Virus record (IMG/VR): IMGVR_UViG_3300029922_000014
Coordinates: 1-64,000 of that record
Length of the DNA: 64,000 bases
From: a virus
Strand: one strand, 5' to 3'
Shown: positions 36 through 62,622 of the stretch, in pieces
Layout: every line of letters starts with the position of its first letter
Numbering within the stretch: the stretch's first letter is position 1
Translations under genes and position numbers: made by a program
Notes under the pieces: model-generated
Told to the model about the DNA's origin: nothing
Database searches by the model: none
What the model saw: the letters and a program-made list of their open reading frames with translations, nothing else

Positions 36-125
36 CTCCGGGTCCGTGGGACCATTGGGGTATGGCGGCCAGCGTACCCGGATTGACACGATGTCAATCC
101 TATTTCCTGCATGACGCGGAAAGTC
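36..125 (-). promoter_or_regulatory. Promoter cassette P1: TTTCCGC-box, palindrome GATTGACA-N3-TGTCAATC (81..99) containing TTGACA, 15-bp spacer, TACGCT, GGTCC-CAC-GGACC stem-loop, GGAG RBS
   Basis: Same architecture at 5 loci, each directly upstream of a start codon. Confidence 0.75.
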
Positions 126-152
126 TGAAATTAAGGCCTTCTGAGAAGGACG
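109..152. repeat. 44-bp perfect direct repeat, copy 1 (within a ~77-bp imperfect repeat 76..152)
   Basis: GCATGACGCGGAAAGTCTGAAATTAAGGCCTTCTGAGAAGGACG identical to 3102..3145. Confidence 0.95.
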
Positions 153-153
153 G

Positions 154-900
154 TCACGGTTTCCGAATGCGGTACGGCCGGCGAATCCAGTACAGCAACT
201 CCTGACGTACGCTGTTTTCTTCCCCCCGCGCAACGCGCAGCATGGCCTTGCGCTCCCGTTGTCCGAGCACTGTCCAATTGGGAGGTGCTTGCATTTCAGA
301 CACGATGACGGTAGCACCCGTTGCGCTCCACTCTTCCATCGTTTGCCAGAATGTTCCGTGATCAAAGGCGCCCGCCCCACGATATTCCAAAGTCCCGGCG
401 TACGGAGGGTCGCAATAAACCACGGTGTCGGCGTCGGGGGTGTGGTCTCGGTAGTCGCAGCAAGCAATCGTCGCACCGTTGAAAGGGATCCGTGATTTCA
501 ATACGCTGGTGCGCGCCGCTGCGAGATATGGCTTGGTCCAGCGCTGCCAATGCTCATCCCACGCAGTGTCAACATATCCTCCGAAAAACTTTCCACCGAA
601 GCTGGCACCAAACCCCGCAAACCCGCGCAGTGCAGAAGGCGCCGACTTGCGAAGTTTGACGTATTCTTCGCGTGTGATGTGTTCGGGTGGTTCCCAGCCG
701 TCAGCAATTGCCTGCCACATGAGAATCAAGTCAGGGTGCGCATCACCGGCAGTAGCGCTGGAAAAGAACGGCGACAGCCGTGTAAACACCGCGCCGCTGC
801 CAACGAAGGGTTCTAAGTACTTGGACTTATTCCCGGAGACGCGAAGCACGTTTTCAACGATCCACCCGGCGATGCGGGTCTTCCCACCGACATAGCGCAT
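154..900 (-). CDS. dam: DNA adenine methyltransferase (Dam/D12 class)
   Basis: RYVGGK start, YLEPFVGSGAV SAM-binding motif, YCDPPY catalytic motif; coupled to helicase stop (TAATG). Confidence 0.9.
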   Translation of the reverse strand: MRYVGGKTRIAGWIVENVLRVSGNKSKYLEPFVGSGAVFTRLSPFFSSATAGDAHPDLILMWQAIADGWEPPEHITREEYVKLRKSAPSALRGFAGFGASFGGKFFGGYVDTAWDEHWQRWTKPYLAAARTSVLKSRIPFNGATIACCDYRDHTPDADTVVYCDPPYAGTLEYRGAGAFDHGTFWQTMEEWSATGATVIVSEMQAPPNWTVLGQRERKAMLRVARGEENSVRQELLYWIRRPYRIRKP

Positions 901-3029
901 TAGCGTTTCGCTTTCTTGCCTGTGACTTTGACTTTGACTTTGACTTTGGCTTTGGCTTTGCCAGTGCTGCGCGGTTTGCGTTTAGGTGTGAGGCGCTTGA
1001 AGCTATCGCGGAACGCGTTGCTGTTGGACACCTTGGGCTTGATGGGGGAGCGGGTCTTCAATTTATCTGTCAAGGCACGCGCGAAACGGCGTTCAGAAAT
1101 GTGCGCAACTGCGATCTGCGCCGCTTCTTTCGTCGATCCGTGCGTGGCGGCCAACGTTTCAAGAGACTGCGACGTATCGACATTTCTCCAGGACGTACGC
1201 TGCGCTGCCATCCGCGCGGGAAGACCGCTCTCCCACTTCCAGCCGCGGGTCTTGTTGAGGATGCTGAATGCGCCCCTGCAATCGGGATCGCGCTGACGCC
1301 GATTCAACTGCACAGACCACCAAGTGGCTTGCAACTTGCTGGTCTTCTTCGCAAGCGCCCCTGTTTTTGGCATCGTATTGCCGTTGGCGATCATCCACTT
1401 GCGAACTTCCGCAGCGTCATGCGTCAAGGATCCGGCACCTCCAGGGTTAGAACCTCCCCACTGAACCAGCATCGGTTCAATCGAGGACACGAATTGTACG
1501 GCATCGTCAGACAAAACTTCGACCTTGTCTGGAAGCGTTATGACCCTCTCAAAACCTTCAAGGTCGTAAACGCGTCCATCGCGCGTCACCAGCGTATTGT
1601 CGGTCTCCTCAGAGGTTTCGCGCATTGTCAACGGATCGAAGTTGGCGGCTGCCACAAGACGAGGGAACACCAATTCCCCATTTTCGTCTTGGCGCACATT
1701 CGCCGCCCGCTTAACAGGAATTGCGGACACGATCTGAGACAATGAGTCGTCACAGGCACGCAATGCGAACAACACGTTCGCAAGATTTTCGTAGGGGGTT
1801 CCGGAAAAGCTGTCAGAAGGAGCGGCGCCATCAGTAGAAACATCATCAGGGCCAATGAAGATGGGAACGATGACCAGCCCTGTTTTCTTTCCAGGGGAAA
1901 GTCGAGAAGCGCGGCCGACTCCCTGAACGATCGACGTGGTGGATTGAATCGGTTCGGTAAACGCGATAGCGTCGATGACAGGGACATCGACCCCCTCACC
2001 AAGGCATTTGGCGTTGGTTACGACCGCATAATCGCCCACGTAACTGTCAAACTTTTCCAACTTCGCGCAGCGGGAACGGCTGCTCATTGTGCCGTTGATG
2101 TGGTCGGCGTGAACATCCGTGCCATCAATGAAACGCGCCACGTGTTCATGGAGGTTGGCGAACACTGCGGCAGTGCGAACCCGGCTATGGAAGGAGATGC
2201 ACTTGCGCGCGTGGTGCTGCTTCATGGTCTTGTGGATTGCAATGTGCGTAGCAAATGCCTTCGCTTGACCTTGAATCGCCCCAAAGGTCATCCCAGGGTT
2301 GCGTTCGAGCAACGCTTCGACTTCACGACTGGTAACATGTGCAACGACGATTTTATAGTCAGTCAACAACCCGCGACGGACAGCCTCTGAGAAATTGAGG
2401 CTATAGAAGACAGGCCCGAATCGTTGGGGATCATCCATCGACAGCACATTTTCCTCGTCGCCGTCCAGGGAAAATACACGGGGCGTGGCCGTCATGAACA
2501 GGCGATGAACGCTGGGCACGGCGTGGACGGTAGTAAACAGCCCATCGGCCCTGCCTGCACACCGATGTGCTTCGTCGCAAATCATGAAGTTGAAGCGCGG
2601 GACGCCGGGGATGCGCAATGCCTCTGCGACAACTTCTGAACTGGTGTAAGTGGCAAATACGACCAACCGCGAACATTTTTTCTTCAGCAATTCAGCGAGT
2701 GTCAGTGAATTGGTGGTGACGTGGACGCCTGCGTCGACCAATTCGGTGACGGCGATGTCGTCATCCCCCACCGTCGAATCACAACAGACCGCGCACATGT
2801 CAAAGGGTTCGGCAGCGTGAGCGCGCCATTCCCGAATGCTCTGCGCCACCAATGCGATGGAAGGGGAGAACAATACGGTACGGGCGCTTTTCAAGCGTTC
2901 TGCGACGCGCAAGCCAACCCGGGTTTTTCCCGTTCCGCAGGCCATATGAAGCTGACCCGCAGAGGACTCTGCAAAGCCTTGCAGAGTGGCATCGATGGCC
3001 TCTTGTTGATGTTTGAGGTCGGGTTGCAT
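900..3029 (-). CDS. Superfamily 2 DEAH helicase (type ISP/Res-like, possible helicase-associated C-terminal domain, Lys-rich tail)
   Basis: MACGTGKT, DEAH, MTATPR, LGEGVDVP, QGVGRASR motifs; start moved to ATG 3029 after GAGGAG RBS. Confidence 0.9.
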   Translation of the reverse strand: MQPDLKHQQEAIDATLQGFAESSAGQLHMACGTGKTRVGLRVAERLKSARTVLFSPSIALVAQSIREWRAHAAEPFDMCAVCCDSTVGDDDIAVTELVDAGVHVTTNSLTLAELLKKKCSRLVVFATYTSSEVVAEALRIPGVPRFNFMICDEAHRCAGRADGLFTTVHAVPSVHRLFMTATPRVFSLDGDEENVLSMDDPQRFGPVFYSLNFSEAVRRGLLTDYKIVVAHVTSREVEALLERNPGMTFGAIQGQAKAFATHIAIHKTMKQHHARKCISFHSRVRTAAVFANLHEHVARFIDGTDVHADHINGTMSSRSRCAKLEKFDSYVGDYAVVTNAKCLGEGVDVPVIDAIAFTEPIQSTTSIVQGVGRASRLSPGKKTGLVIVPIFIGPDDVSTDGAAPSDSFSGTPYENLANVLFALRACDDSLSQIVSAIPVKRAANVRQDENGELVFPRLVAAANFDPLTMRETSEETDNTLVTRDGRVYDLEGFERVITLPDKVEVLSDDAVQFVSSIEPMLVQWGGSNPGGAGSLTHDAAEVRKWMIANGNTMPKTGALAKKTSKLQATWWSVQLNRRQRDPDCRGAFSILNKTRGWKWESGLPARMAAQRTSWRNVDTSQSLETLAATHGSTKEAAQIAVAHISERRFARALTDKLKTRSPIKPKVSNSNAFRDSFKRLTPKRKPRSTGKAKAKVKVKVKVTGKKAKR

Positions 3030-3035
3030 AGCTAA

Positions 3036-3118
3036 CTCCTCGGTCCAGGGGACCGTTGGCGACAACATACCGGGATTGACATCGTGTCAATCCGATTTAC
3101 CGCATGACGCGGAAAGTC
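3036..3118 (-). promoter_or_regulatory. Promoter cassette P2 (palindrome 3074..3092; TTGACA-N15-TATGTT; GGTCC-CCT-GGACC stem-loop; GAGGAG)
   Basis: Direct inspection; matches P1, P3, P4, P5. Confidence 0.75.
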
Positions 3119-3145
3119 TGAAATTAAGGCCTTCTGAGAAGGACG
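3102..3145. repeat. 44-bp perfect direct repeat, copy 2
   Basis: Identical to 109..152; contains the 3' end of ORF 3124..3504. Confidence 0.95.
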
Positions 3146-3504: not shown

Positions 3505-3507
3505 AGC

Positions 3508-3837: not shown

Positions 3838-3842
3838 GACTT

Positions 3843-4810: not shown

Positions 4811-4813
4811 GAC

Positions 4814-5275: not shown

Positions 5276-5380
5276 CTCCTGGTCCGTGGGACCTTTGGCA
5301 GGGTGGACCGTTGGTCCGATGGGTGAACTGTACGCGGACTGACATCGTGTCAATCAAGACTTTCCGCGCTATACGGAAAA
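5276..5380 (-). promoter_or_regulatory. Promoter cassette P3 (palindrome 5338..5355; TTGACA-N15-TACAGT; two GGWCC-N3-GGWCC stem-loops; AGGAG)
   Basis: Direct inspection. Confidence 0.75.
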
Positions 5381-5409
5381 CACCCTAAAACAGAGTTGCA
5401 TCAATAAAC

Positions 5410-7900: not shown

Positions 7901-7902
7901 GG

Positions 7903-8066: not shown

Positions 8067-8156
8067 GCTCCTGGTCCAGGGGACCGTTGGTGTTGCCGGG
8101 ATCGTATGCCAACTGACATCGTGTCAATCGTCTGTTTCCGCGTCACGCAGAAAGTC
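8067..8156 (-). promoter_or_regulatory. Promoter cassette P4 (palindrome 8112..8129; TTGACA-N15-TACGAT; GGTCC-CCT-GGACC; AGGAG)
   Basis: Direct inspection. Confidence 0.75.
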
Positions 8157-8158
8157 GG

Positions 8159-13071: not shown

Positions 13072-14058
13072 TTATCCGATCTTGAAACCAGGGGGGAGGC
13101 GGAGGATTGACACGATGTCAGTCCGTGTGAGCGGTCCGAACGTGGTGGGGTTGATCACCTGGAAGCCAACCAAGAGGGGCAGGATGTAGCTTTCCGGGGG
13201 TGCCGGATCGCCATCGACTGCGGGCTTCTGGCCAACGATATTCAAGGTGGTCTTCGGGAGCAGCCCGACTGTCCCTGCCTGGATCGCATCAGCGACGGTT
13301 GGGATGATCTCGGCATTGAGCATCAGGCGCCCGGATGCGTCGATGGAGCAGGCAGTGGTGGTGTGGCCACAACCATCCACAGGCTTGCCGTCAACCGACC
13401 ACGTTGCGGCGATCGGGAACTCCTGCTTCTTGAGTTGACTCAGGAGCATGCCCACCACATCAGCGGCCCACACCACACCAAGCACGCTGGGCTTGTCGGC
13501 CACGATCACGGTGGGAAGGTTTCCGGTGAAGAGCGCGAAGCTGCCAGCCACACGCGGATTGGTGATCGCCTTCGGCAGATTGGCCGCCGCTACGGGGTCG
13601 AGGGTGGCCACCAAGGAGCCGTCGGCGGCGATGTCGCTAGGCTTGAGCAACAGCAGAGCGCTGACGCTGGGGTCCTCTTGATTCCAGACCACGACCAACG
13701 AGACGAAGTACGCGCCTGCTTCGATCTGCTTGATCAGTCCGGCCGAGGTGGAGATGGTCGCGCGCAGGGTACCGTCGAAGGTGGCGGTCACCGGAACCAC
13801 GGTTCCCACTTCGGTGGTGTGCGGATTGCCCTTGGTGCTGTCGGCGGCGTCGTAGTGCTTGAGGGGGATGTGGCCGGCGTTCAGGCTGGCGGCAAAGCTG
13901 ACGAAGTTGGCGGCGGTCAGGGCACGACCAGCGATCACGTCACCCGGTTTGGTACGAACGGTGATGACGGTGGTTCCGCGAGGACTGGTAACGCTCCCCT
14001 GCCCTGACCATTTGCCAGGGGGGAGCGCTTGCGGAGTGACGAGGGAGATGGTGGACAT
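13072..14058 (-). CDS. hypothetical protein with internal duplication (possible degenerate prohead-protease fold)
   Basis: AAGGAG RBS; two similar halves. Confidence 0.6.
   Translation of the reverse strand: MSTISLVTPQALPPGKWSGQGSVTSPRGTTVITVRTKPGDVIAGRALTAANFVSFAASLNAGHIPLKHYDAADSTKGNPHTTEVGTVVPVTATFDGTLRATISTSAGLIKQIEAGAYFVSLVVVWNQEDPSVSALLLLKPSDIAADGSLVATLDPVAAANLPKAITNPRVAGSFALFTGNLPTVIVADKPSVLGVVWAADVVGMLLSQLKKQEFPIAATWSVDGKPVDGCGHTTTACSIDASGRLMLNAEIIPTVADAIQAGTVGLLPKTTLNIVGQKPAVDGDPAPPESYILPLLVGFQVINPTTFGPLTRTDIVSILRLPPGFKIG
13105..13122. promoter_or_regulatory. Dispersed palindrome (in CDS, encodes TDIVSI)
   Basis: GATTGACACGATGTCAGT. Confidence 0.85.
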
Positions 14059-17287: not shown

Positions 17288-17305
17288 ACTGACATCGTGT
17301 CAATC
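17288..17305. promoter_or_regulatory. Dispersed palindrome (intergenic)
   Basis: ACTGACATCGTGTCAATC. Confidence 0.85.
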
Positions 17306-17318: not shown

Positions 17319-20300
17319 TCAAGCGAACTGGGACAGGTAAGACATCGCCTGTATCAGTTCGGTAGGCGTCAGTTCGCGCTGATATATCACCACGGCGCTG
17401 ACCAAACCAAAGAATGGATCGGCCCCCGATGAGTTCGTCAGATCGAGGTTTCCGACAACAACACGTCCACTGCTGGTATGTGACGGCCCATAGCCAGCAG
17501 AAGCCGCGGTGTCGCCCGCTTGCTGCACAGTCAGCGTTCCGGAACCCTGCACGCCGTATATGACAGTCGGGGTATTTGCAGCGGTCACAGACGGGGTTGG
17601 CGCACTCTGCCCATCCACCATGTAGTCGGTTTCTATGAAAGTCGAAGGCGAATTGAACCCAGCCGTTATTTGAGCGATGAATTGCCCACTGATAAGATCA
17701 CCGGCCCAGACGAGGATGTTATTACCGATTGACGGCGACGCGGTCGATTCAAATACGGCCAGAATCGTAAAGCCAGTGGTCGACAACGGCACGGCCGTCG
17801 AAGCGCTTGTCAATCCGGTCCCGGTCGCAAATCCACCAACGGCGTCATTGCCGCCGATGGATCCGAGGGTGAGGGCACCGACAGCGGTTAGATCATTGCC
17901 ATTCCCGGACAGGTCGTTCCAGCCCGTGACAACACCAAGGGAGGAAACGATCGAAGCCGGTGTCAGCAGGAGTGCTGCGCCTGATGGCAGTGACGCCACC
18001 CCGTTTGTACCGCTACCCACGATGGTGGCAGCGGCAGCTTGGAGTGTTCCGGTGCTCTCTGTCTCGTTAACGCTTCCGGTTCCAGACACCGTAGCCGCCT
18101 GTGCGCTCATAGCGCCAGCGTTCAAGACAGCGCCGGACATCGTGGCGGATTGCGCCTGAATAGTTCCAACCACCTCGGGACGTCCAGGGGCGGAGACGAT
18201 CCCAAATCGGGCAAGAATGTACGCGCGAACCGCCGCAGGATCCTGGGAAGGCGGATAGATAAGAACTTCTGTGACTGTTCCGTGGAAGAAATCACTTGGC
18301 GTCAGTTGGTCGGAACCGATCCATACTCCCAGGGTCGTGCCGTGGCCATCGCCATAAGTCCACACAGCCGATTGTTCGCCATCACTGTTCAGCTTACACG
18401 TGATGTTGGTAAGGGGGTTAAAACCACCGTCGACAAGGACCAGTTGCGAGAGCGGAACGACGTCAGCCGAATCGGCCTCGGTTCCGCCGGATCCATAAAC
18501 GCCAGCAGTGTGTCTGGCCTTACCCGAAGTCCCCGCGTCACCGACGCGCATAGAGACGCCCAGCACACTCGGATCGGTTCTTCCGTCAGCCCCCAATACG
18601 ACGTTACTTGCGCTGTATGCATTCAAAGTGCAAACGACATAGATATGCCACCCGTCCGCATCCTGGAAATTGTACGGAAGGGCCACCCGACTGGCGGAGT
18701 CAAACCCGCCCACATATGTGATGCCTCCCCCGGTGACGGCATTCAGGGTTCCTGTGCCAACACCATTGTTTCCGTTTCCTGACGAATCCGGCCAATTGAT
18801 GGTAGACCCTGACGGAACAGCGGTTCCGCTCCGCAGCCATACGAGCATCCCAGGTGGCGGGGTGGCTGTGATGGGGGTGGTGATGACAAACTGTTCGTCA
18901 AGGTACGCCGCGTCAGGAGCCAACGGCGACGGAACGTTCAGGTCAGTGTCGAACCACGCAACGTCAACATGGGCAGGCAGCACACCGAATTGGAGGTCGT
19001 TGGCGATCTGTTTTTTAATCGCCAGCATGGCTGCGGATGCCTGCGGGGTCAAAGCGACCGCCAAGGGGCTTCCATCAGGGTTGTTGAGGTGAATAGCAAC
19101 CCGGCTGGAGGGGAAGAAGATCGGAATCCGCTTCGACCAGTACCCATGGAAGTACTCACGATAGCGATCACCGAAGGTAGTAACCGTGATGGTTCCGCTG
19201 ACCGCGCCAGGATCACCGCTGGCACCAAACTGATAAGTGAAAACGGTGGGGCTGATGACGCTGACCGTAAACTTGCCATTATAGGCAGCCGGGGAAGCGC
19301 CATCAATTGCAACGGTCTGTCCCGACATCAAACCGTGAACCGGGTTTACGATGATTGACCCCGTAACCACCCCAGGATCTGTGGCTGCTGCAAAAACGTA
19401 GGTGAACGTGGTCGGTCCGGTAACGGCGACCAAATAATTTCCGTTGTAGGCAATTGGCGTCGCCCCGCTGATCGCAGCCGTTTGTCCTGACGTCAAACCG
19501 TGAGCAGACGTCGTCGTAACCGTTGCAGTGACCACGCCAGACGCGAATGCGCTCGTAATTCCGGAAACCGCAATAGAGGCAACCGTCACTGTTGCAGTGA
19601 CCATGGCAGATGCAAACGTGCGCGTGATTCCGGAACTCGGAAACGTGGCAAACGCGCGCGTACCATAAGCCGTAGATGACGTAACCTGATTGCGAATCGG
19701 CGGCCCGAAGGTCTTGAACGCGGTGATGTTGGTGACGGTCAGCAGCGAACCATAGATCGTGGTGAGGGCCGCGATGAAGTTTGCAACCGTGGTCGCCAGC
19801 GTCGCGTTGATCTGCACCTGCGGAGCAGTCGCGGATCCGGCGATGAAGGTAAAGGCGACAGCACCAAGTTCAAAGATCGTACCGGTGACTGCACCGGGGT
19901 CGACCCCCAACACGAAGGTATAGGTGAAGGTGTTCGCGCCGGTGACGGTGATGACGAATGCGCCGTTGTAGCTCGACGGGAGGGCGCCGCTGATCTGAAC
20001 GCTGGTTCCGGTTACCAATCCGTGCGGCGTCACGGTAGTGACGGTCGCAGTGACTGTTTCCGCCGCATAGGATCTGGTGATGCCAGAAACGGAAACCGGC
20101 AGCGTGATTGACACGATGTCATTCACCGCCGGGTTTGCCTGATTCTGAAAGACCACATACCCCGTGGCTTGATTGTACAAATCGGCGCCATCCATTCCAA
20201 ACGGACCGATAACGGATCCAGTCGCGGTGATCGGAACGTTGAGCAGCGTAGACGGGGTTCCGACCGCGGTGACCAATTCGATGGTCGGATCACCAGGATC

Positions 20301-24910: not shown

Positions 24911-25273
24911 CTAGGCTTCCGACAAGCCGCCGGAAGAGCACTTCACGGAAAGGACTGGATTTGGCGGATCCTGGATTGACAGCGTGTCAATTGCAGGTGC
25001 GTCCGCCAACGATTGACACGCTGTCAATCGCGCCTTGCAGTCCTTGAGGTGGTGCGACTTCCTAATGACGTCGGGTCCGAGCAGCATGTCGTGGTCGAGC
25101 ATCATGATCAGTGTGACGGTGCGTCCCAACTCCAGGTTGTTGACCGTTCGGCCACGTAGCAGCATCCGATCGGTGACGTGCTTTGCCCGCAAGCGCCAAC
25201 GGGTCAAGCGCACACGCGCATCGAACCGTGAGCAGATGCAGATCAGAGCGTGAGCGTCAGAAGTTGTTGCCAT
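24911..25273 (-). CDS. hypothetical protein in the baseplate cluster
   Basis: Fills the gap between structural genes; contains two palindromes. Confidence 0.5.
   Translation of the reverse strand: MATTSDAHALICICSRFDARVRLTRWRLRAKHVTDRMLLRGRTVNNLELGRTVTLIMMLDHDMLLGPDVIRKSHHLKDCKARLTACQSLADAPAIDTLSIQDPPNPVLSVKCSSGGLSEA
24974..25029. promoter_or_regulatory. Pair of dispersed palindromes (24974..24992, 25011..25029)
   Basis: GATTGACAGCGTGTCAATT and GATTGACACGCTGTCAATC. Confidence 0.85.
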
Positions 25274-28671: not shown

Positions 28672-28689
28672 GATTGACACGGTGTCAGT
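28672..28689. promoter_or_regulatory. Dispersed palindrome (supplies the TGA stop of 28685..29050)
   Basis: GATTGACACGGTGTCAGT. Confidence 0.85.
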
Positions 28690-32812: not shown

Positions 32813-32830
32813 GATTGACACGATGTCAGT
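32813..32830. promoter_or_regulatory. Dispersed palindrome (upstream of tape measure)
   Basis: GATTGACACGATGTCAGT. Confidence 0.85.
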
Positions 32831-38728: not shown

Positions 38729-38746
38729 AATTGACACGATGTCAGT
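38729..38746. promoter_or_regulatory. Dispersed palindrome (supplies the TGA stop of 38742..39197)
   Basis: AATTGACACGATGTCAGT. Confidence 0.85.
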
Positions 38747-42261: not shown

Positions 42262-42280
42262 GATTGACGTCGTGTCAATC
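42262..42280. promoter_or_regulatory. Dispersed palindrome (one mismatch) at the HNH stop
   Basis: GATTGACGTCGTGTCAATC. Confidence 0.75.
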
Positions 42281-44742: not shown

Positions 44743-46242
44743 CTACTTGAGCGTGGAGCGCTTGATGATCTTGGCGGCGAGGGCGACCCCGCCTTCCGCA
44801 ACGATCTTGTCCTGGTTTTCGGAGATGGACTCCGAGACCACAGAAAGACCGGTGGGGAGTGACCGACGCTTCTTGGGCGGGGCGATGGCGTTGGTCTGCG
44901 CTTCGGCCACGGGGACCTGGGCATGCACGACCTTGGTGAGATCACGAATGGTGGCGTTGAGTTCCACGAGGCTGGTGGCCTCCTCCAACTTGAGCCGGTG
45001 AGGGGCCAAGTCGGGCATTTCTTTCACCGCTTCTTCCACCGCCGCCTTCAGAGGCGATTCGGTTTTCCGCTTCGACTGCTTCGCGATCACGTCAGTAGCT
45101 GCCTCCAAACGGGCGGCCATCTTGGCGTTTTCTTCGACTTCGGCTGCGAGCTTGTCTTGAAGCATTGACACCGTGTCAGTTGCTTCAACCAGCTTGGCAT
45201 CCGCGTCGCTGAGCCGTTCACGCAGCCCGACGTTCTCCTGAACGGAGATGTCGACCTGCCGCTGCAACGTCTCGATGACCGGGGTGAACGTCTTGGCGGG
45301 TGCTTTCGGCTTGAGCAATTCGATGGATTCGGACAGCTTGCGCTGCAACCACCCACGAACGTTCTTTGCCTCCTGCGCGTCGATCAGCGCCTCCGCCTCG
45401 AAGTCGTTCACCTGCTTGAATCGGGTGACCAGCGACGACGCAAAGGCGTGCTGTTCCGTTTCAGTCAGGGTTGCGACTACGGTGGCGTTGGCGTCGGTCG
45501 CGCTTTCGACCAGGGCCTTCACTTCCTCGCTCATCTCTCCAGAGACCTTCACAGCCTCCGGCATCTTGTTCCCGATCAGCGTCGGGTACGCCCCGGGAGT
45601 GCTGGGGCGCATGACGGCGTCCCAGGTCTCAACCAGAAAGTCGGATTCACTGACGGTACCCTCGGCATTGACCGAACCGATACCGCGACTGGAAACACCC
45701 CAGCGAATGTTCTTGAGGGTGTATTCCTGAAGGATCAGGCCATGGGGGGTGTCGAGAAGTTCAGCCTTCCCCCACACGACACCGTCTTCGTTCAGCTTGA
45801 GGTCGGTGACCAGGAGAGCGCCGAGGGGTCCGTAGGTGCGACCGTTCTCAGGATGCTCGAAAAGTCCGAGCATGGCACGCTTGCGCATCGCCTCCATGAC
45901 CGCCGACTTGTTGGCAATCAGACGTTCCCAGACCTTGCGCGGGTAGGTGCGGCCATTGGCATTCTTGACATCGGAACGCTGGAACGGTCCTTCAACCATC
46001 CACTTGCCGTCCTTGACGTACTTCTTGCCATTCTCGCGTTCGAGGAGGTCGAGCTTGTCGATGCTCTCGACGAGAACGCGCCCATCGCCCTGACAGGATT
46101 CGGTCAGCAGTTTTCCGGCCGGGGTGGCTTGGCCTTCGACCACGAAGACCTTCTGCCCCTGCTGCACATAGCGCAGATCGGGGAAGAAGGCGCCTTCGTA
46201 GCCTTCACAGATCCGAACGCGCTTCGCTTGGGAGTTGGACAT
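44743..46242 (-). CDS. prohead protease (T4 gp21-like) fused to a coiled-coil scaffold
   Basis: G.FQ..DVKNANGR.YP, LG..EHP, G.AELLDTP.G, GVSSRG.GS, WD.V..PSTPGA. Confidence 0.9.
   Translation of the reverse strand: MSNSQAKRVRICEGYEGAFFPDLRYVQQGQKVFVVEGQATPAGKLLTESCQGDGRVLVESIDKLDLLERENGKKYVKDGKWMVEGPFQRSDVKNANGRTYPRKVWERLIANKSAVMEAMRKRAMLGLFEHPENGRTYGPLGALLVTDLKLNEDGVVWGKAELLDTPHGLILQEYTLKNIRWGVSSRGIGSVNAEGTVSESDFLVETWDAVMRPSTPGAYPTLIGNKMPEAVKVSGEMSEEVKALVESATDANATVVATLTETEQHAFASSLVTRFKQVNDFEAEALIDAQEAKNVRGWLQRKLSESIELLKPKAPAKTFTPVIETLQRQVDISVQENVGLRERLSDADAKLVEATDTVSMLQDKLAAEVEENAKMAARLEAATDVIAKQSKRKTESPLKAAVEEAVKEMPDLAPHRLKLEEATSLVELNATIRDLTKVVHAQVPVAEAQTNAIAPPKKRRSLPTGLSVVSESISENQDKIVAEGGVALAAKIIKRSTLK
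45163..45180. promoter_or_regulatory. Dispersed palindrome (in CDS, encodes TDTVSM)
   Basis: CATTGACACCGTGTCAGT. Confidence 0.8.
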
Positions 46243-46636: not shown

Positions 46637-46860
46637 GCTGCGCCTCCGCCCCCGCCTCCGCTGGCTCCTGCACCTCCGGAACCGCCCACTGCACCCGCCC
46701 CAGAGGCTCCTGGAGCGCTTCCGCCGCCGTTCGAGATACCGCCAGCCGGGGCGGTCGTCAGACCCTTCCCAGGAGGCAGGCCGGTCTTGCGCTTCTTCGT
46801 CTTCTTGTTGCGGATTTTGAGGGCCGCTTCCATGAGTGAACGCGTATCCACAGGCGTCAC
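46633..46860 (-). CDS. small basic, Gly-rich protein
   Basis: GTGA couplings on both sides. Confidence 0.5.
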   Translation of the reverse strand: MTPVDTRSLMEAALKIRNKKTKKRKTGLPPGKGLTTAPAGGISNGGGSAPGASGAGAVGGSGGAGASGGGGGGAA

Positions 46861-47431: not shown

Positions 47432-47492
47432 GATTGACACGGTGTCAGTTGAACGATGCACAGATGGCGGACTGACACGATGTCAGTCCGCC
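47432..47492. promoter_or_regulatory. Pair of dispersed palindromes (47432..47449; 47471..47487 with arms extended to 12 bp, 47466..47492)
   Basis: GATTGACACGGTGTCAGT and GGCGGACTGACA-CGA-TGTCAGTCCGCC. Confidence 0.85.
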
Positions 47493-51600: not shown

Positions 51601-54600
51601 AGCAGTTTGCGGAACTCGGTCAGCGTCCCATGCCAGTTGCCCTGGGCGGCGGTAGTCTGAATGAGGTGATTTTTGTTTGCGTCGGGGTGAACATAGTATG
51701 CCGGCTCATCCAGCGGGGTTTTGGGAGGTCCCCAGCCACTGGACGGAAGCTCACTGAGCGGCGCGCAGATGAACGTGGCGGCCTGCGTCATCATCACCAC
51801 ATAGGTCTTGAGCGCGCCGTCGGCAGTTTCGACGCCGACGCTCCCAAGCACGAAACAGCCCCAGAACGACGAACCGGTGTCGTCGTTGACCATTCCATAT
51901 TCGGCGCCGGCAGTGGTGGAGAGCTTGATGATCGCCTGCCCCTGCAACTTCTTCTTCACCGCCTGAATCATGTCGGTGGTAAACGGAACGGAGCCTTCGA
52001 GCAGCGCTTCCCAAACATCCTCGTACGGCGCTGGCGGGATGTTCTGACCTGCGTTGTCGGTGGCCGCGGTGGGCTGTGAGGTGTAGTCGGCTTGTTTGGG
52101 CTTTGCAGCGAGGATGTTGCCGTTCGTCGTCAGCCACTTTTCGGTATCCTTCACCACCTGCTTGTCGCGCACAGAGAGTTCTGCGTACCAGTTGGAGTCT
52201 TCGTAATTGTCCATCGGGACCAGGAAGGTCTCTTCTGTCTCTTGGGGATCCTGGTCTTTAAAGCCGGTCAGAGAGCCACCCGTGGGCTTGGCAATGAACA
52301 GGCGGGTGATCGACGTGGACCCCATGTAATCGCCCAGGTGAGCCAGCGGGACGCAAGAGATGCCAACCTCCTCGAACACTTCGCGCACGGCTGCCTTCTC
52401 GGTCGATTCGCCCGGGTCAACGCCGCCCTTCGGGAAGGTCTTGGAATAGCCACCGAACTCGTTCAGCGGATGCACCAGCAGAAGGTAATGGCAGCCGGTA
52501 GTGGCCCCACCAATCGCTGCGCCGGGGGGAAAGACCACCACGCATCCGGCGGCTGGCTTCTTGCCTGCGATCGTGGCGAACGTCGGTTGCTCAACCGCAG
52601 TGGGGTTGTTCCAGCCCTGGGGCTTCTCACACGGGATTGACACGGTGTCAATCGTCACCGCGCAGTTGTTTTCACCGGGTTTGAAGGTGGCAACGCCGAC
52701 ATGACCAAAGCCATCGGGAAGCGCCGGTTCCTGCTGTGACCACTGGAACTTAAAGCTGACGGGATCAACCTCACCCGCAACATCCTGAACCAGCGGCGTG
52801 CCTTGCCCCGGGGCGGTCGAGTCCTTGAACCAGAACCAGCCAGCGACTACGCCTTCGGCACCGCTGGTATGTTTGACCTGGGTGCCAATAGGAAAGAAAA
52901 CACCTTCAGGCGCCGGGACAAGGTGGTACCCCTGATGATTCGCGATCCAGGCGGTGACTTCTTCCGACGGCGCATATCCCAGCGGCGAACTGGGCTGGCC
53001 CTCTTCCTTCTTCTCCCAGTTCGATGGCTTGGAAACGGTGAAATACGCCTTGCCGTCCCCGTTCTTGACAACTGCCATGGGCTTCTGTCCTGAGACGAGA
53101 GGGTGGGATCTGACCCACCCCACTACCGTCACGACAACGCCCGCTCCGATCTTGTCCGTAAGCTCCGTTCCGACCGGAAAGAACTCGCCGGCTGGCGCAT
53201 GGACCAGGGTGTAATGAAGATCATTCGCCCAATCCTGAAGTTGCTGTGAAACGACATATCCGGATGCAGGCGGAATGAACTGGTCTGGCTCTTTCTTCGT
53301 CCAGGCTTCAGGGTTGAACGCGATCGACGGCGGACCGCCTCCGGGGCTCTGGGAAAGCATGAACGTCTTCGCGAGGATGGATGCCGATCCCGACGTTTTC
53401 TTCACGTACCCAGAAACGACTTCAGTCGTCCCGTAACCGACCACTTCGGTGCCGATCGGAAACTCTCCGGGCGGAACAGGAACAAAAACGTAGCCTGCCT
53501 GTTCGGCGTATTCCTGATGGTGCTGCGAAACCTCGTACCCCAACGCAAGCGATGACGTCGGCGCTTCGACCGGCTCGTCGATGATGCTGGCAACCGGAAC
53601 ACCGCCAATCACCTGTCCAACAATCCACTGCGGCGGGCCGCCCGACTGCGTGACGCTGTCGATGTAGTAGTACGTCACGTTGCCAACAGTGACGCCCCCC
53701 AGCATCTGCATGGCCTTTGGCCCATACGTCAGATAGGGCGGTTTCGTAAGCCACTTGAACGCATCGGCTGGATGGCAGTTGTGCACGACCACGCCATAAG
53801 CGTCATCAACCGCCTTGAAGTCGATATCGGGAGTCACCGGACTGCCGTGCATCGGAAGGAGCAACGCGAGCTTGTACTTTCCAGCGGTCTCGTCGACAGC
53901 GAGCACGTACATGTGCGTCTCGACCTGCTTCCCTTTCGGGATCAGGATGTCGCCTGCCTTGAAGGCCGGAACGGGCTTGGACACCACGGGCGGAAAAACC
54001 GCGATAAGCGGGAATGTCACCGTGTCCTCGATGTCCGCGTCGATCGTTTCTGCGGTGCAACGCCACATGACCCACTTGCCGTCCTTCGCAGTGTATGCGT
54101 ACGCCCAGGAATAGCCGTCGAGGTCGATCGTGTACGTTTTCGTCGCGTAGGCGAGTTCAGCCTTCCCATCCCCGGTCGGATCGGAAATGAACGCACAGGC
54201 TTTTGCAGCGGTGGAAGCAGTGCCGATGAACTCGTTTTCGCCACTCTCGTCGAAGGTCTCGGCAATGACCTTTACCGACGTTGCGCCGAACAGCGCCAGC
54301 GGAGCCAACCAATAGGTCGTGACTCCGGCTTTGGTGCCGATGTGCCCAATCCAATACCGCATCTTCTCTTCGTTGTTTCGCACGATGTCGTTGACGCTGA
54401 ACTTCGGAACGTACGCCTTGGGCATCTCCGGTGCCTTCTTCCACACCGGCGTGATCTCGCCGCTTTCGATCTTTGCTGCGAGCGCGTCGTCTTCGTAGTC
54501 GTCGATGTCACCATCGTCATCCTGGCAGATGACCAGAACATCATCGACAACGACCGCTTCGCCGTTTTCATCTGTCGCGGGCAGGTCTTTGACTTCGATC

Positions 54601-56018: not shown

Positions 56019-56470
56019 GGTGTTCTCCGATGCTTGCTCTTGGCGTCACGCTCTTCGCGACGTTTGAGCACCTGGGATGGAAGCTTGATTGACACGATGT
56101 CAGTCTTCGGCGGCTTGAGCTTCGTCAGCAAAGCGCTCAGCGCATCTGCATTCGCTGGCGCCTCATGGAACTTGTCTTTGTACCGAACGGAGAGCGCGCC
56201 CATGAGACCGATGACGTGGACGGTGTAGTCGTGCTGGGTGAGCTTTTTGACGGCCTTGTCCACCTCGGTCACGGACCAGCCACGCGCCAACAAAGCCGCC
56301 TGTGAGGCTTCTGGAACGATCAGCGACTTCGAGGTCTGTCCGTACACCCGACGCGAAACTGCGGCGAGCGGAGAGAGCGTGCGGGGATTGATGAGGGCGT
56401 ACCCGGCTTCCTTCACCAGCGCTTCAGCGCGCGGGTGTAGTGGGCTGGTCAGGACGACGGCGACTTTCAC
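56015..56470 (-). CDS. hypothetical protein
   Basis: GTGA coupling to the giant gene. Confidence 0.6.
   Translation of the reverse strand: MKVAVVLTSPLHPRAEALVKEAGYALINPRTLSPLAAVSRRVYGQTSKSLIVPEASQAALLARGWSVTEVDKAVKKLTQHDYTVHVIGLMGALSVRYKDKFHEAPANADALSALLTKLKPPKTDIVSIKLPSQVLKRREERDAKSKHRRTP
56087..56104. promoter_or_regulatory. Dispersed palindrome (in CDS, encodes TDIVSI)
   Basis: GATTGACACGATGTCAGT. Confidence 0.85.
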
Positions 56471-58198: not shown

Positions 58199-58215
58199 AC
58201 TGACACGGTGTCAGT
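58199..58215. promoter_or_regulatory. Dispersed palindrome (intergenic)
   Basis: ACTGACACGGTGTCAGT. Confidence 0.85.
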
Positions 58216-58223
58216 CCTTGGGA

Positions 58224-61200
58224 TCAGACGGCGGGAACGAAGCTGATGCCGGTGCCGGTGAAGACTGCCTGTACCTTTTCGGCCGCGATGCGACCGGTGG
58301 TGACGGTGACGGTGTTCTCTTCGATCTTCACTTCGGTGTCGCGCGGGGCACCGGCGTCCTCAGCGAATTGCAGGAACTCGTCGAGGCGATTGCGCGGGAA
58401 GGTGATCACCACCGTGGTGTAGTCAAGACCTTCGAGCGACAGTCCCTTTCCGAGGGTGCGCTTGATGATCGGGTTGGCATGGGTGATCTTGCGCGCCATC
58501 GCACGCCGGCCGGGGCCAGCCTTGTACGCTTCGACCAGCGCTTGGGTCTTCGCGCGGAAGTCCTCGGGCAGGTCGTTCTTGGCGCACTGCTCCATCTCCG
58601 CAAAGAACTCGTCGTCGTCCATGCGGCGGATGGATTCGACCCATTCCTTCACGGTGTCACCCACGGTGGACGGCATCTTGAAGTCGGCGGCGCTGCCCGT
58701 GGTCCCGCAGTTGTCGCAGGAGCACTTGCCGTCTTTCACGGTGATGCCCTGCGTGGCTTCGCACTTCGGACAGGCCATCTGCAAGTTCATGCTGGCGTTG
58801 CTGGTAGTGCCTTCAGGCACGGAAGCCGGAACGTCATCATCCCCCGCGCCGCCGGCATCGTTCTGCGGCCCCTTGGTCTTGGCATCGCGCACGCCGGTGT
58901 TGGTCTTCTTGACCTTCTTCTGATTGACCGCAACACCATCCGGATCGAGGTCTTCTTCAGACTCATCCAGCTTCTGGGCGTTGGCAGCCGCGACGCCGGC
59001 CTTGAAGCGCGGGTGACGTTCGACCGGATTTGCGTTCGGATCGAAGGTAGCTTGGTGCTTCTTGAAGTAGGTGTGGTCCTCGTCGGAGTGCTTCTTGAAC
59101 GTGGCCGCCAGCTTGTGGTTGCCTGCTTTCTCATGGCGGTCGGCCATGGTCCGCAGATACCCGGTACGCTGGGCGGCGTTCAGGTAGTTGGAATGGGTGA
59201 CGCCCTTCTTGTCGCCTTCGTCCATGCCCGAATCCGGCTTGGTCTTCGAGAAGCCGCCCTTGCTGCCGGGACCGGTCTGGACCAGCTTGTTGCTGGCCAC
59301 CTTGCCCTTCTTGCCCGGGATGCCGGTCTCCTTTTCGCCTTCGCCGTCCTCGCCGGTTTCCTCTTCCTCTTTGACCAGCTTGCCCGACCAGTTCTTGGGC
59401 TTGATCGCACCCATGCGGAAGTGCTTGGCGGTGAGGGTGTGGCGGCGACCTTTGCGATGAGCGCGGGCGGTCAGGCCTTCGACGACAGACGCGAGCAATT
59501 CCTTGCCTGCCGCTTCCGCGATGGCCTGAGCGGCTTCGAGCGCAAAGGCCGGTTCGTCTTCGGAGACGGCTTGGTCGTAGGCGTCGATCAGGTTGCTGTC
59601 GATGGTGGGGTCAGCACGGAACATCTCCGCCAGGACGTTGCCCATGGCGTCGTACCATTCGTTCTTGGACTGCGGCACGTAGACATAGCCCTGCTCCTGG
59701 GCCTTCTGGCTCAGATAGGCTTCGCCGTTCGAGAGGTCGTCCTGATCGGACAGGTCGCACTCGACGGAGTCGATGATCGCGCCGTCGCCGTCATAGCCCT
59801 TGCGGAGTTCGAGTTTGCCTTCGCCGGGAACGATGACCGCGCAGCCTTCATCCGGATCCTCGCCGGTGCTGTCGTCGTCGCCGTCGTCATCCTTGCCCGC
59901 ATACGGGCTGACGGTGCCGTTGCCTTCGCCGGGGAAGAGACCGGCCTTCTTGGCCTTGATCACTTCTTCGACGTCTTCCTTGGTGGCGTTTTTGGAATGG
60001 AGCGCGCGGGCGGCGGTCGCGAACGCCTTGTTGTCGGACGCTTTCTTGAAGTCGACCTTGAACTTGGCGTCGTCGGAAGCCGGCGCGGTGCCGCCATGCT
60101 CCGTAGCGAGCTTGCGCAGTTCCGCATGCGGGAGGTGCTTCTTGATCATCTCCATGTCGAAGGTGGTCGAGGTGTCCGACTCTTCGAGAGCTTCGTCGAT
60201 CGCCGGACCGCCGCCGGTCTGATGCCCCGGATTGGTCACCCAATGCCCGCGCGCGTTGTCTTCATTTCGCACCAGCATCTGGCCGAGTTGGAAGCGCAGG
60301 TCTTCATATTCGCGACGCTGGCTCTTGCCGCCGAGGTACAAGGTGGCGTCGTCATCGGGGCCGAGCTTGTCGGACAGGGAGTCGTTCACGCTGGCGTGGA
60401 GTTCCGCGATGCGCTTGCGGGCTTCCGCGGGATCGTAGGTGTTGGCGTCGTCTTCGTTGAGCGATTCTTTGACCTTTTCGGTGGGATGAATCCCCTCCAA
60501 ACGCTTGTGCTCTTCCTTTGCAGCCTTGATGAAGGCGGGGTGCTTCATGACATCTTCGGCGTCGCCTTCTTTTCTGACCTTGGCGTATTCCGCAGAGGCG
60601 CCAGTGAATGCGCTGTGCGCGTCATTCGCAGAGTGCATGAACGGGCCATTCTCGAACTTGGCACGTTTCGCGTGTTCGCGTTTCGCGTAGCTGTGCCCAG
60701 CATCTTCGGCATGATACTCGGCGGTCCTGGGAGTCTTCGGCACCGGCTTACGCTCGACATACGCTTCAGCCAAAGCAGCGTTGATTGACACGGTGTCAGT
60801 GTCATCGGTCACCGATTCATTCACGACCTTCTCACGCAGCTTGATGTCGAGGGCCTTGACCTTAGGGTCGGCCTTGAGCGCGACCATGATGGCATTCGCG
60901 AGCTTGTCGCCCTGGTCCTCGCACACCGTCTTGATGGCGCGCTGCATGACGAACTCGGCCAGTGCGTACGACGGAGTCTCGTCGATGAAGTTGTCGCTGC
61001 GGAAGCTGATGCCGCAGTAGTTGGCGTATGCTGCTGGCTGCCCCGCCGCCATGAGTCCCTTGTTTTCGCCATCGACGCCGACGATCTTCATCCAGGCTTC
61101 GGTGAGCGCGACGCTGGCGGCCTGCTCGTCGATCTCTTCGGATTCGGTGAGCTTGAGGAGGGACTTGTGGATGCCGTCCACGTCCTCTTTGGTCAGCTTC

Positions 61201-61679: not shown

Positions 61680-61738
61680 GGATGGCTCCTGAACGATTGG
61701 GAGCCTCCGGGGGTGTGTGCGGCGCAACGGCCCCGCGG

Positions 61739-61996
61739 TCAGCACTCCAGTCGTTCCACCTGTCGTAGTGGACTGTCCACCTTTCGCAAGACAACGATGC
61801 CCAAACGCTTCCGGCGCTGTTTGGCTTCAGCAATACGACGCTTCAGGCTCGCGAGGTCTTTCCTGGATTGCTTGATGCGCCGTTTTGCAGTCGCGATCTT
61901 TTCCGCTTCGTTGCCCGGTCCCAGATAATATTCAGGATCGAGGCGTGTTCCGGCGCTCTGCGCGATGGTTTGTGCTGGAACGATTGCGATTCTCAC
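61739..61996 (-). CDS. small basic coiled-coil protein
   Basis: GTGA coupling; RLDPEYY motif. Confidence 0.55.
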   Translation of the reverse strand: MRIAIVPAQTIAQSAGTRLDPEYYLGPGNEAEKIATAKRRIKQSRKDLASLKRRIAEAKQRRKRLGIVVLRKVDSPLRQVERLEC

Positions 61997-62313
61997 AGCA
62001 GCCCCAGCGCCTTGGCCGCGATCACGTTCGCGTCTTCGGCAATGGTGGTCGCCAGTGCCATGCGCACGGCCTTCACCGGGTCAGGATCGAAGGCGGTCTT
62101 GCCGTTCGACAGGCAGCACTCGTAGTCCTGCCCGCTTCCGCCCCAGAGCAACACGCCCAGGCGCACCTGCCAGATCGCGTCGGGGATCTTGATGGTGATG
62201 TTCCAAGTCGATTCATAATTGGGCGACAGCGCGACGGTCCAGCCTTCGGGCCACTTCGCATCGGTGACCACCTTGATGGCAGCCTGCAATTCGCGTTCGT
62301 TGGCATCTTCCAT
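61993..62313 (-). CDS. hypothetical protein
   Basis: GGAG RBS; operon packing. Confidence 0.6.
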   Translation of the reverse strand: MEDANERELQAAIKVVTDAKWPEGWTVALSPNYESTWNITIKIPDAIWQVRLGVLLWGGSGQDYECCLSNGKTAFDPDPVKAVRMALATTIAEDANVIAAKALGLL

Positions 62314-62316
62314 GAC

Positions 62317-62547
62317 TCACTCCGACTCGCCAACGCGACGCATCCGGTGCGGTGCGAGGCTGGTGACGATGTTGTACCCGCATCCGTTGGTCGGACACGG
62401 CACGGTGTAGTCATCTTCAACTGCACCGGAAGGAACCACTTGGCAATCACCTTGCATACAGGTGATTTCACATTTGCAGTTATTACACTTCCCCTGGCGC
62501 GCGATCGTCTCCGGTAATTTTCCGGGTGTGGTTATCTTGACGGTCAT
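62317..62547 (-). CDS. small zinc-ribbon protein
   Basis: CNNC...CP..GC; first gene after P5. Confidence 0.65.
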   Translation of the reverse strand: MTVKITTPGKLPETIARQGKCNNCKCEITCMQGDCQVVPSGAVEDDYTVPCPTNGCGYNIVTSLAPHRMRRVGESE

Positions 62548-62622
62548 GGCGCATCCCCTGAGACGCACCATACGCCAACTGACACGATGTCAATCCATGT
62601 TTTCCGCATGACGCGGAAAGTC
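62548..62622 (-). promoter_or_regulatory. Promoter cassette P5 (TTTCCGC-N5-GCGGAAA 62601..62619; palindrome 62578..62595; TTGACA-N15-TATGGT)
   Basis: Direct inspection; lacks the GGTCC stem-loop. Confidence 0.75.

Follow-up and report, generated by a model that had tools for sequence, protein, structure and literature searches.

A genome-wide array of TGACA-N3-TGTCA palindromes in a 150-kb phage and a ParB-family protein as its candidate reader

The DNA studied here is the first 64,000 nucleotides of the virus record IMGVR_UViG_3300029922_000014 (one strand, 5' to 3'; hereafter the window). A first-pass annotation, made from the letters of this window, had noticed 23 copies of the palindrome TGACA-N3-TGTCA in promoters, at gene boundaries and inside genes. 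The locus raises the question of what reads such a palindrome in so many different places. Our answer starts from what can be observed directly: the array, its even spacing, selection at the level of the DNA, variants specific to each lineage, the fold and motifs of a ParB-family protein, and the association of the sites with its gene. We infer binding from these observations, and consider it fairly probable that the palindromes are loading sites for P0001, the partner-less ParB-family protein of this phage.

A pattern search of the window finds 22 exact TGACA-N3-TGTCA sites, whereas dinucleotide-preserving shuffles yield 0.06 on average and at most 1. When one mismatch is allowed, a single extra site appears, at 42265. 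The window belongs to a complete phage genome (G000), an IMG/VR record of 150,436 bp; a 127-bp overlap between its two ends points to a circular assembly. In the whole record 51 matches are listed. They correspond to 50 unique exact copies, one copy being doubled by the end overlap, and the reversed control pattern gives zero matches in G000. The mismatch spectrum is sharp: 50 exact copies against 0.4 expected, 5 one-mismatch copies against 5.2, and 36 two-mismatch copies against 61. The five one-mismatch copies are real members of the array, because all five carry the family flanks (gat...rty) and a CG centre. The total in G000 is thus about 55.

When the copies are aligned, a longer 19-bp dyad, RAY-TGACA-NNN-TGTCA-RTY, becomes visible around the 13-bp core. 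Every 3-bp centre contains CG, in 22 of 22 window copies and 50 of 50 genome copies. Among the 51 listed copies, the centres are CGA/TCG (39), CGG/CCG (8), CGC/GCG (3) and CGT/ACG (1). Their orientation is 19 versus 32 overall and 6 versus 7 in promoters, and both orientations occur in every class of site, in favour of a reading on double-stranded DNA.

The pattern TGACA-N3-TGTCA is absent from 916 kb of unrelated contigs, of which 568 kb have 55-70% GC. Likewise, three related phage fragments (200 kb in total) hold 0 copies. A scan of IMG/VR for ATTGACA-N3-TGTCAAT returned single matches only, with none of the 80 loci listed having more than one site, and so added no relatives. A set of 80 metagenome loci, mostly with generic ParBs, served only as controls. 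Several statements of the first-pass annotation can be settled here. Its 23 window sites are all present, with start coordinates 2-3 nt too low (flank counted in). Its hand estimate of fewer than 0.1 chance matches in 64 kb agrees with the shuffles, its CG centre holds throughout, and the scan of the full contig that it proposed gave the 50 unique exact copies. It had also named equal frequency in unrelated high-GC DNA as evidence against a function, and no such frequency is found.

The copies are too evenly placed for chance. The spacing of the 50 exact copies has a coefficient of variation (CV) of 0.54, and its largest value is 6,434 bp. When positions are drawn at random, uniformly or among gene junctions alone, the CV comes close to 1 and the largest gap to about 14 kb (13.6 kb expected). 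None of 20,000 simulations reached the observed spacing (P<5e-5 versus uniform placement and versus random gene junctions). Of the five one-mismatch copies, three each split a different one of the largest gaps left by the exact ones. With exact and one-mismatch copies together the mean spacing is 2.7 kb (about 2.7-3 kb overall), and the base farthest from a site lies 3.0 kb away. A fraction of 77-82% of the genome is within 1.5 kb of a site (82% with the one-mismatch copies). Most in-gene copies are found in genes of 1151-2450 aa, whose length leaves no junction to use. Selection appears to act on the evenness of the coverage itself. The earlier description of a genome-wide array applies to the whole 150 kb, with a spacing that is over-regular.

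We classified the copies on the minus (sense) strand, and the classes depend on our own gene calls. The 51 listed copies comprise 14 in early-promoter cassettes (13 unique), 8 whose TGA is the stop codon of the upstream gene, 17 in other short intergenic stretches and 12 inside genes. A ninth stop-overlapping copy, at 101684, is tallied under promoters, and two of the stop-overlap copies also hold the start codon of the next gene. The other intergenic copies typically lie 2-17 nt past a stop or 16-21 nt ahead of a start. For the 23 window copies (Table 1) the classes are 5 promoter copies (84, 3077, 5340, 8114, 62580), 10 junction copies and 8 in-gene copies. The first-pass annotation had given 5, 8 and 10; the promoter figure stands, and the other two are recounted as a matter of gene calls. 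It had two sites supplying a TGA stop, which are 28675 and 38732. No conserved late-promoter element is seen beside the copies of the late region.

Two pairs of palindromes in the window (24977-25026 and 47435-47485) have members 37-38 bp apart, which is about 3.5 helical turns. Both pairs stand at entries to structural-gene blocks, one for the baseplate wedge and the other for head scaffold, protease and capsid. The 24977 pair has the rare GCG/CGC centre, in opposite orientations.

In the promoter cassettes, TTGACA of the palindrome is the -35 box, and the second arm falls inside the spacer. This confirms the overlap with -35 boxes first noticed in the window. A TAnnnT -10 element lies 15 bp past TTGACA in 8 of the 14 promoter copies; the other six are called from an upstream element, CCGC-N5-GCGG (Box B). 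Most cassettes carry Box B and a leader hairpin, GGTCC-N3-GGACC, and Box B is 6-8 bp upstream of the palindrome in about 10 of them. Two cassette promoters, at 66520 and 139808, have no second arm. The dyad is thus an addition to the promoter, outside its core. As a speculation, Box B might be the site of a KorA-like second partner protein.

The order of the cassette on the minus strand is stereotyped: TTTCCGC-N5-GCGGAAA, 6-8 bp, TTGACA with the palindrome, and TAnnnT after an unusually short 15-bp spacer. The leader hairpin, with a loop of 3 or 4 nt (GGTCC-N3/4-GGACC), is placed just ahead of the Shine-Dalgarno sequence. Such cassettes are found at 3040-3125, 5300-5390, 8075-8160 and 62545-62625 of the window, and at 101.6-113.7, 127.1 and 129.4 kb of the genome. 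In three cassettes caTGATGc after 17 bp takes the place of TAnnnT. The promoters of the related phage G004 have a 17-bp spacer with TGnTATACT.

Two kinds of evidence bear on the level at which the palindrome is read. First, the base pairs that flank the arms are T-A 12, T-G 11, C-A 18 and C-G 5. There is no stem-like covariation, and each half-site prefers Y before TGACA. Second, all in-gene copies stand in the frame xxT-GAC-ANN-NTG-TCA and encode D-[IT]-[VLM]-S, with a TCA codon that makes up 8% of Ser codons. Orthologues from five related phages have other peptides at these positions (for example, A-I-L-T-M-I versus D-I-V-S-I-S), and the in-gene copies keep the frame without any insertion compared with these orthologues. 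Because the flanks do not covary and the orthologues are without the peptide, the palindrome is a DNA-level site, neither an RNA stem nor a protein motif, and reading on double-stranded DNA is favoured. The site sequence has been placed in tolerant, variable parts of the proteins. Both the recurrent D-[IT]-[VL]-S peptide with the unfavoured TCA and the selection on DNA had been proposed before, and both withstand this comparison. The single in-gene reading frame was considered as a separate signal and dropped. Codon usage alone predicts a bias of 11-15:1, because the other stop-free frame (ACA-NNN-TGT-CAx) needs a rare Cys codon.

Five IMG/VR contigs share the capsid with this phage at about 60% identity, and all are transcribed in one direction. 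The comparison with related phages, proposed in the first-pass annotation, shows that every one of them carries its own enriched dyad variant. The complete G003 (156 kb) has 17 copies of CCAGTGACA-CGC-TGTCACTGG, which keep the TGACA-N3-TGTCA core with a spacing CV of 0.40; no extra copies of this dyad appear in G003 even with 5 mismatches allowed. G004 (96 kb) has 20 copies of TTGAC-N5-GTCAA, and G001 (91 kb) has 10 copies of GTGAC-N5-GTCAC. TGGAC-N5-GTCCA is present in 7 copies in G005 (72 kb) and in 3 copies in G002 (37 kb). In G004, six copies lie in canonical promoters (AT-rich UP tract, TTGACA, 17 bp, TATACT).

The arrays of the relatives have a different sequence and occupy different places, and their spacing is over-regular or wide (CV 0.40-0.75). 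Site positions are only loosely conserved between G000 and its relatives, and some junctions hold a site in G003, G005 and G002 despite its differing sequence. This suggests that individual sites turn over while the arrays persist. Since each relative has its own dyad variant and the arrays seem to outlast their sites, the comparison points to a phage-encoded reader that diverges along with its site.

Two further motifs accompany the sites of the relatives. One, gGTGTAGACa, recurs in G003 (loci L011-L018) and G005 (L029-L032), where several palindromes have it 10-40 bp downstream. The others are conserved leaders, cccctacatcgaggga and ctcctgacaccgcaggag, found after positionally conserved sites in G003, G005 and G002. 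They may be lineage-specific promoter or leader elements.

Which phage protein could be this reader? A search for the ParB N-terminal domain (PF02195) has a sole match in the genome. It consists of P0001, a protein of 396 aa encoded outside the window at 128145-129335 (-), between RecA-like and FEN-like genes. P0001 has the ParB_N domain (PF02195, 1.3e-14) followed by HTH_ParB (PF17762, 5.7e-07), a helix-turn-helix (HTH) domain. The boxes GHRRLLA, AENNEGLR and LQNIVVRP are present (GxxRR, ENxxR and QxIxVRP types). In 60 orthologues the residues G116, R118, R119, E156, N157 and R162 are invariant or nearly so. The sequence is homologous to Caulobacter ParB, Noc and Spo0J, and it aligns to Caulobacter ParB bound to cytidine triphosphate (CTP; 6T1F).

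The AlphaFold2 model of P0001 has a predicted local distance difference test score (pLDDT) of 88.5. Over residues of about 60-280 its fold matches those of Noc, ParB and KorB (8QA9, TMt 0.75). These matches span the N-terminal and the DNA-binding domains, and Noc is the top structural match. The helical C-terminal domain has no match to any solved structure. A homodimer model of this domain scores 0.81 versus 0.01 for the best control, with contacts agreeing at 88% or more and pLDDT of at least 80. The mark used for homodimers is reached by 20 of 30 solved one-chain pairs versus 1 of 23 single chains; these counts are rough, and our own alignment was used. The model supports dimerization of P0001 via its C-terminal domain but is no proof of it.

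A partition system (ParABS) was considered and dropped. The complete genome has no AAA_31 or CbiA match, that is, no ParA-type ATPase (controls positive in 14 of 14 genomes), and the N-terminus of P0001 has no LG[KR]GL-type ParA-binding motif. Instead, residues 1-55 are disordered and rich in Ala, Pro and Lys, as in the orthologues. In G003 the N-terminus of ParB shows about 70 residues of KKxxAKK repeats. These tails resemble those of histone H1 or HupB, and they could add non-specific DNA binding or condensation.

Among 21 scanned proteins common to G000 and G003 (P0001 and 20 others), only P0001 has a recognizable sequence-specific HTH. The scanned set includes helicases, DnaB, primase, methyltransferase, PolA-UDG, SSB-like, RecA, FEN, Mre11/Rad50, a PDDEXK nuclease, terminase and portal.

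The parB loci of other phages also connect the protein with the palindrome. P0001 as sole query found no IMG/VR relatives, and a word-based protein search returned P0001 alone. The full-length family comprises 151 clusters at E<1e-30 in a profile search. Wherever the flank of a locus is long enough, parB adjoins the FEN-like gene, usually between it and the RecA-like gene. The parB gene of G000 has a promoter-type site 84 bp upstream; of the other sites nearby, one is two genes downstream and one within the recA-like gene that precedes parB. Close to parB, at most 250 bp upstream or 110 bp downstream of it, G000, G003 and 8 of 13 fetched loci (L036, L047, L245, L246, L247, L248, L252 and L254) have a palindrome of the class xGACx-N3-xGTCx; three of the fetched loci have less than 320 bp of upstream flank. 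A ninth locus, L243, has a relaxed copy, TTGAC-N5-GTCAA, 44 bp upstream. The density of the class palindrome is 1.8/kb beside parB versus 0.18/kb locus-wide, about ten-fold, with chance estimated at about 0.015/kb from eight fixed or paired positions.

The dyads next to parB recur on their own contig with lineage-specific arms, such as GGGGACA-CGA-TGTCCCC, GTGACA-CNG-TGTCAC and CTAGACA-ACG-TGTCTAG. Likewise, three further ParB-bearing records have 14, 19 and 5 copies of TGAC-N5-GTCA versus 0 of the reversed control.

Nevertheless, several observations weigh against P0001 as the reader. Locus L249, with ample flanks, has palindromes 6.5 kb on either side of parB and no adjacent copy. In about 10 pairs, the recognition helix and the arm base (T, G, A or C before GACA) show no clean covariation; VRRC recognition-helix residues tend to accompany TGACA, and G003 breaks this pattern. 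Related phages share the whole replication module, and the association with parB is not cleanly separated from that of its neighbours. The asymmetric, strictly CG-containing centre is not obviously required by a symmetric dimer. Finally, shared proteins with no known domain are possible readers or DNA-binding partners. One of them is P0002, a Cys-rich protein of 96 aa (genome 145543-145833, minus strand). It matches no family, and its 59% identity between G000 and G003 puts it level with the capsid in conservation.

These points lead to the strongest rival, which we regard as unlikely though worth serious attention. The palindromes would be operators of a different dimeric DNA-binding protein, either a domainless phage protein or a host regulator, acting as a classical repressor at the early promoters and as a stoperator-like roadblock elsewhere. 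The same DNA-level evidence fits such a protein, G000 and G003 share several unannotated candidates including P0002, and the lack of a clean HTH-to-site covariation for ParB agrees with it. However, an enrichment of palindromes at parB across divergent loci is not expected from another reader, and promoter control needs no even spacing over late genes. A host factor leaves the lineage-specific variants among closely related phages unexplained. The only other recognizable HTH examined is the MerR-type protein encoded in the window (63384-63998), which the first-pass annotation had named as a candidate reader. It was rejected, with no orthologue in the five relatives identified by the major capsid protein, including the complete G003 with its TGACA-N3-TGTCA core. 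The more general idea of that annotation, that a dimeric protein of the phage acts on the whole genome, is supported for the most part.

An enzyme recognition site is improbable. Here the palindrome would serve a nickase, a DNA-modifying enzyme or a restriction-like self-marking system, with nicks or modified bases at intervals. The strictness of the arms (50 exact versus only 5 one-mismatch copies) and the invariant CG of the centre would suit an enzyme, and a DNA methyltransferase-like gene (genome 137559-138368) is common to G000 and G003. Nothing, however, ties this methyltransferase to the palindrome. Known phage nick sites are asymmetric and strand-specific, unlike these palindromes, which occur in both orientations. 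Restriction or modification sites are not usually built into the -35 and spacer of about 13 promoters. There is no match to a Tet/JBP dioxygenase, although the same search matched none of the control genomes and therefore does not establish an absence. The idea of a ParB-dependent thymine dioxygenase (PMC13229309) was dropped; the ParB class of that system has no DNA-binding domain.

Much less credible is an RNA hairpin in polycistronic minus-strand transcripts, with a role in processing, stability, termination or translational coupling. Almost all genes are on one strand, many copies lie exactly at gene junctions, and nine overlap a stop codon, two of which also contain the next start. On the other hand, the stem has 5 bp only, and in the sense strand C.A mismatches flank it at 18 sites with no covariation. 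The stem is invariant, with zero compensatory changes. The mean minimum free energy of the 19-mers is -5.3 kcal/mol, no T-tract is seen after the palindromes, and an Rfam search gave no match. Moreover, about 13 copies lie in promoters, upstream of the transcription start.

A selfish short repeat (like miniature inverted-repeat transposable elements or repetitive extragenic palindromes) or a gene-conversion product, functionless for the phage, might explain many near-identical copies with the same kind of asymmetric centre, but it is the least plausible of all, because the 13-19 bp copies share no flanks outside the dyad, stand in frame inside genes with no insertion versus orthologues, are over-regular and unclustered, and are replaced in the relatives by arrays of other sequence elsewhere (CV 0.40-0.75).

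If the palindromes are loading sites for P0001, the following mechanism could be proposed. Each 19-bp dyad would be a nucleation site for P0001 dimers. If ParB, Noc and KorB are a guide, each dimer would then close as a CTP-dependent clamp and slide about 1 kb to either side. With sites every 2.7-3 kb or so and gaps of about 6 kb at most, the whole 150-kb chromosome would come within reach of a clamp. Near-complete range would be expected because there is a site about every 3 kb and KorB-CTP reaches 1.5 kb. About 13 early promoters have the dyad over their -35 and spacer, and ParB on these sites would compete with RNA polymerase and exclude sigma70. Early genes would be shut off, and parB, which is driven by a promoter of this kind, would regulate itself. 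Coverage of the late region would stay unbroken through the copies at junctions and in genes, and the coat might act there in long-range control of transcription, in compaction, or in protection or self-marking of phage DNA.

A broader version of this mechanism is possible, but we hold it as doubtful. A virulent phage with a T4-like capsid would coat its entire chromosome with a CTP-dependent ParB clamp as phage-specific chromatin, with no partition role. Early promoters would be shut off as the protein accumulates. The coat would mark, compact or shield the DNA, or carry a mobile late-gene signal like the gp45 clamp of T4. To our knowledge, no such use of the ParB fold is on record for phages.

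Several known systems can be compared with this array. The closest is KorB of the IncP-1 plasmid RK2, which has 12 OB operators, TTTAGCSGCTAAA, and in its CTP-bound form acts on promoters up to 1.5 kb from its site (PMC11790492). Both proteins have the ParB-family CTPase fold with an HTH, and the KorB structure is among the best fold matches of P0001. In both cases a 13-bp palindrome with an odd centre is spread over the whole replicon. Some sites lie at promoters, one of them at the protein's own operon, and others far away or in genes. The sliding range of KorB, about 1.5 kb, is half the site spacing of the phage. However, the phage has no ParA/IncC partner and no ParA-binding motif, and no KorA-like partner was identified in it, with no search aimed at KorA made. 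It has about 55 evenly spaced sites in 150 kb, whereas KorB has 12 in 60 kb. Finally, an apparently virulent myovirus differs from a plasmid, and the C-terminal domain of P0001 is unlike any solved structure.

Noc is likewise a ParB-family CTP clamp with no ParA, with about 70 palindromic Noc-binding sites (NBS) over the Bacillus subtilis chromosome. It is the top structural match and a top sequence match of P0001. Noc differs in its N-terminal amphipathic helix for membrane tethering, where P0001 has its disordered tail. The phage sites are about 20 times denser and built into promoters.

The stoperators of cluster A mycobacteriophages (L5, Bxb1) are dozens of 13-bp sites bound by a phage protein that affects transcription genome-wide. 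They resemble the array in having copies in promoters and short intergenic spaces across a phage genome. Nevertheless, stoperators are asymmetric and oriented with transcription, whereas here the arms form a perfect dyad and the asymmetric centre points either way. They are read by the immunity repressor of a temperate phage, whereas the candidate here belongs to the ParB family, and no tyrosine integrase was found, with no repressor search made. The stoperator analogy of the first-pass annotation fails on asymmetry and orientation.

The matS sites of enterobacterial chromosomes (13 bp, GTGAC-RNY-GTCAC) serve DNA organization rather than promoter control. They have a similar form and are repeated over a large DNA domain. 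However, their reader MatP is a ribbon-helix-helix protein, and matS occurs only in the terminus domain, about 1 per 35 kb, with no embedding in promoters. The linear plasmid-prophage N15 has dispersed palindromic SopB centromere sites, some near late promoters. It shares with this phage a ParB-family protein and palindromes at several separate genome positions. N15 differs in having four sites (about 55 here) and a SopA partner, where this phage has no protein of the ParA type, and in living as a plasmid-prophage, whereas lysogeny has left no sign here.

Table 1. Palindrome copies and the MerR-type gene in the window (window coordinates; gene strand in parentheses)
Feature	Position	Details
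Palindrome, early-promoter type	84..96	Minus-strand TTGACA = -35, TACGCT after 15 bp; same copy as genome 150393 (assembly overlap)
Palindrome, full promoter cassette	3077..3089	Box B CCGC-N5-GCGG, palindrome, -10, GGTCC-N3-GGACC leader; upstream of DNA helicase gene 900-3068 (-)
Palindrome, promoter cassette	5340..5352	Minus strand
Palindrome, promoter cassette	8114..8126	Minus strand
In-gene palindrome	13108..13120	Near 3' end of gene 13072-14058 (-); peptide T-D-I-V-S-I
Junction palindrome	17290..17302	17 nt past stop of 1250-aa virion protein gene
In-gene palindrome	20109..20121	1250-aa virion protein gene 17319-21071 (-)
Junction palindrome	24977..24989	First of pair 37 bp apart; upstream of baseplate-wedge block
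Junction palindrome	25014..25026	Second of the 24977 pair
Junction palindrome	28675..28687	TGA = stop of gene 28685-29014 (-); ends 6 nt before ATG of 27257-28669 (-)
Junction palindrome	32816..32828	21 nt upstream of start of 1039-aa gene 29676-32795 (-)
In-gene palindrome	36356..36368	Tail sheath gene 34457-36724 (-); orthologues differ here
In-gene palindrome	37728..37740	Gene 36948-38711 (-); orthologues A-I-L-T-M / A-V-I-T-T here
Junction palindrome	38732..38744	TGA = stop of gene 38742-39197 (-); 21 nt before next start
One-mismatch palindrome (TGACG arm)	42265..42277	gat...atc flanks, CG centre; 2 nt past stop of gene 42279-43049 (-); bisects 6434-bp gap
In-gene palindrome	45166..45178	Prohead protease gene 44743-46242 (-); peptide missing in five orthologues
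Junction palindrome	47435..47447	First of pair 38 bp apart; 18 nt upstream of gene 46857-47417 (-), head-module entry
Junction palindrome	47473..47485	Second of the 47435 pair
In-gene palindrome	52638..52650	Middle of 2450-aa gene 48666-56018 (-)
In-gene palindrome	56090..56102	Gene 56015-56470 (-)
Junction palindrome	58201..58213	11 nt past stop of 1151-aa gene
In-gene palindrome	60786..60798	1151-aa gene 58224-61679 (-)
Palindrome, promoter cassette	62580..62592	Box B + palindrome + TATGGT
MerR-type HTH gene	63384..63998	(-); candidate reader of the first-pass annotation; weak, no orthologue in relatives

The phage that carries the array is distant from cultured ones. A megablast of 20 kb against GenBank phages gave no match, and the best cultured capsid relative has 32% identity. 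By our gene calls, 169 of 172 genes are on the minus strand. Products encoded in the window are a T4-type major head protein and a prohead protease, very large virion proteins and, for the tail, a sheath and baseplate proteins. No tRNA genes were found in the genome. No tyrosine integrase was found either, and no search for a repressor was made; lysogeny was dropped for lack of an integrase match, and the myovirus is apparently virulent.

Three other genes are worth noting. In the open reading frame of 2450 aa at 48666-56018 (-), residues 1179-1272 in the middle of the protein form a NUDIX domain. All five relatives have an orthologue (21-29% identity), and the product is probably a giant protein of the virion or one that is ejected. 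The T4-type portal gene (genome 114177-117248, minus strand; locus L240:10177-13248) is interrupted by an intein, with Intein_splicing, Hint and LAGLIDADG matches. At genome 132901-136914 (-) (locus L241:8901-12914), a family A DNA polymerase is fused to an N-terminal domain of the uracil-DNA-glycosylase superfamily, and this fusion is kept in the related loci L243, L247 and L249.

A ParB-family protein with dispersed palindromes that double as operators is already known from KorB-OB, and a paralogue with scattered sites from Noc-NBS. What is new here is an array with no ParA, of about 55 regularly spaced sites, in an apparently virulent 150-kb myovirus, where the sites lie in essential genes and in a stereotyped promoter. 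Full-text literature searches returned surveys of orphan phage ParBs and the ParB-activated dioxygenase, and no description of such arrays. Orphan phage ParBs are listed with no function in a 2025 survey (PMC12704722).

Orphan ParB-CTPase proteins are common in phages. The palindromes and P0001 form an unusually clean candidate pair of site and protein, with a strict dyad in about 55 even copies, kept against codon preference and placed in an early promoter. The prediction is that a clamp loaded about every 3 kb covers the whole viral chromosome. If this is true, the principle of KorB and Noc would extend from plasmids and chromosomes to the development of a lytic phage. It would also offer a compact model, with one protein, one site and defined promoters, for the control of transcription or DNA organization by a sliding clamp.

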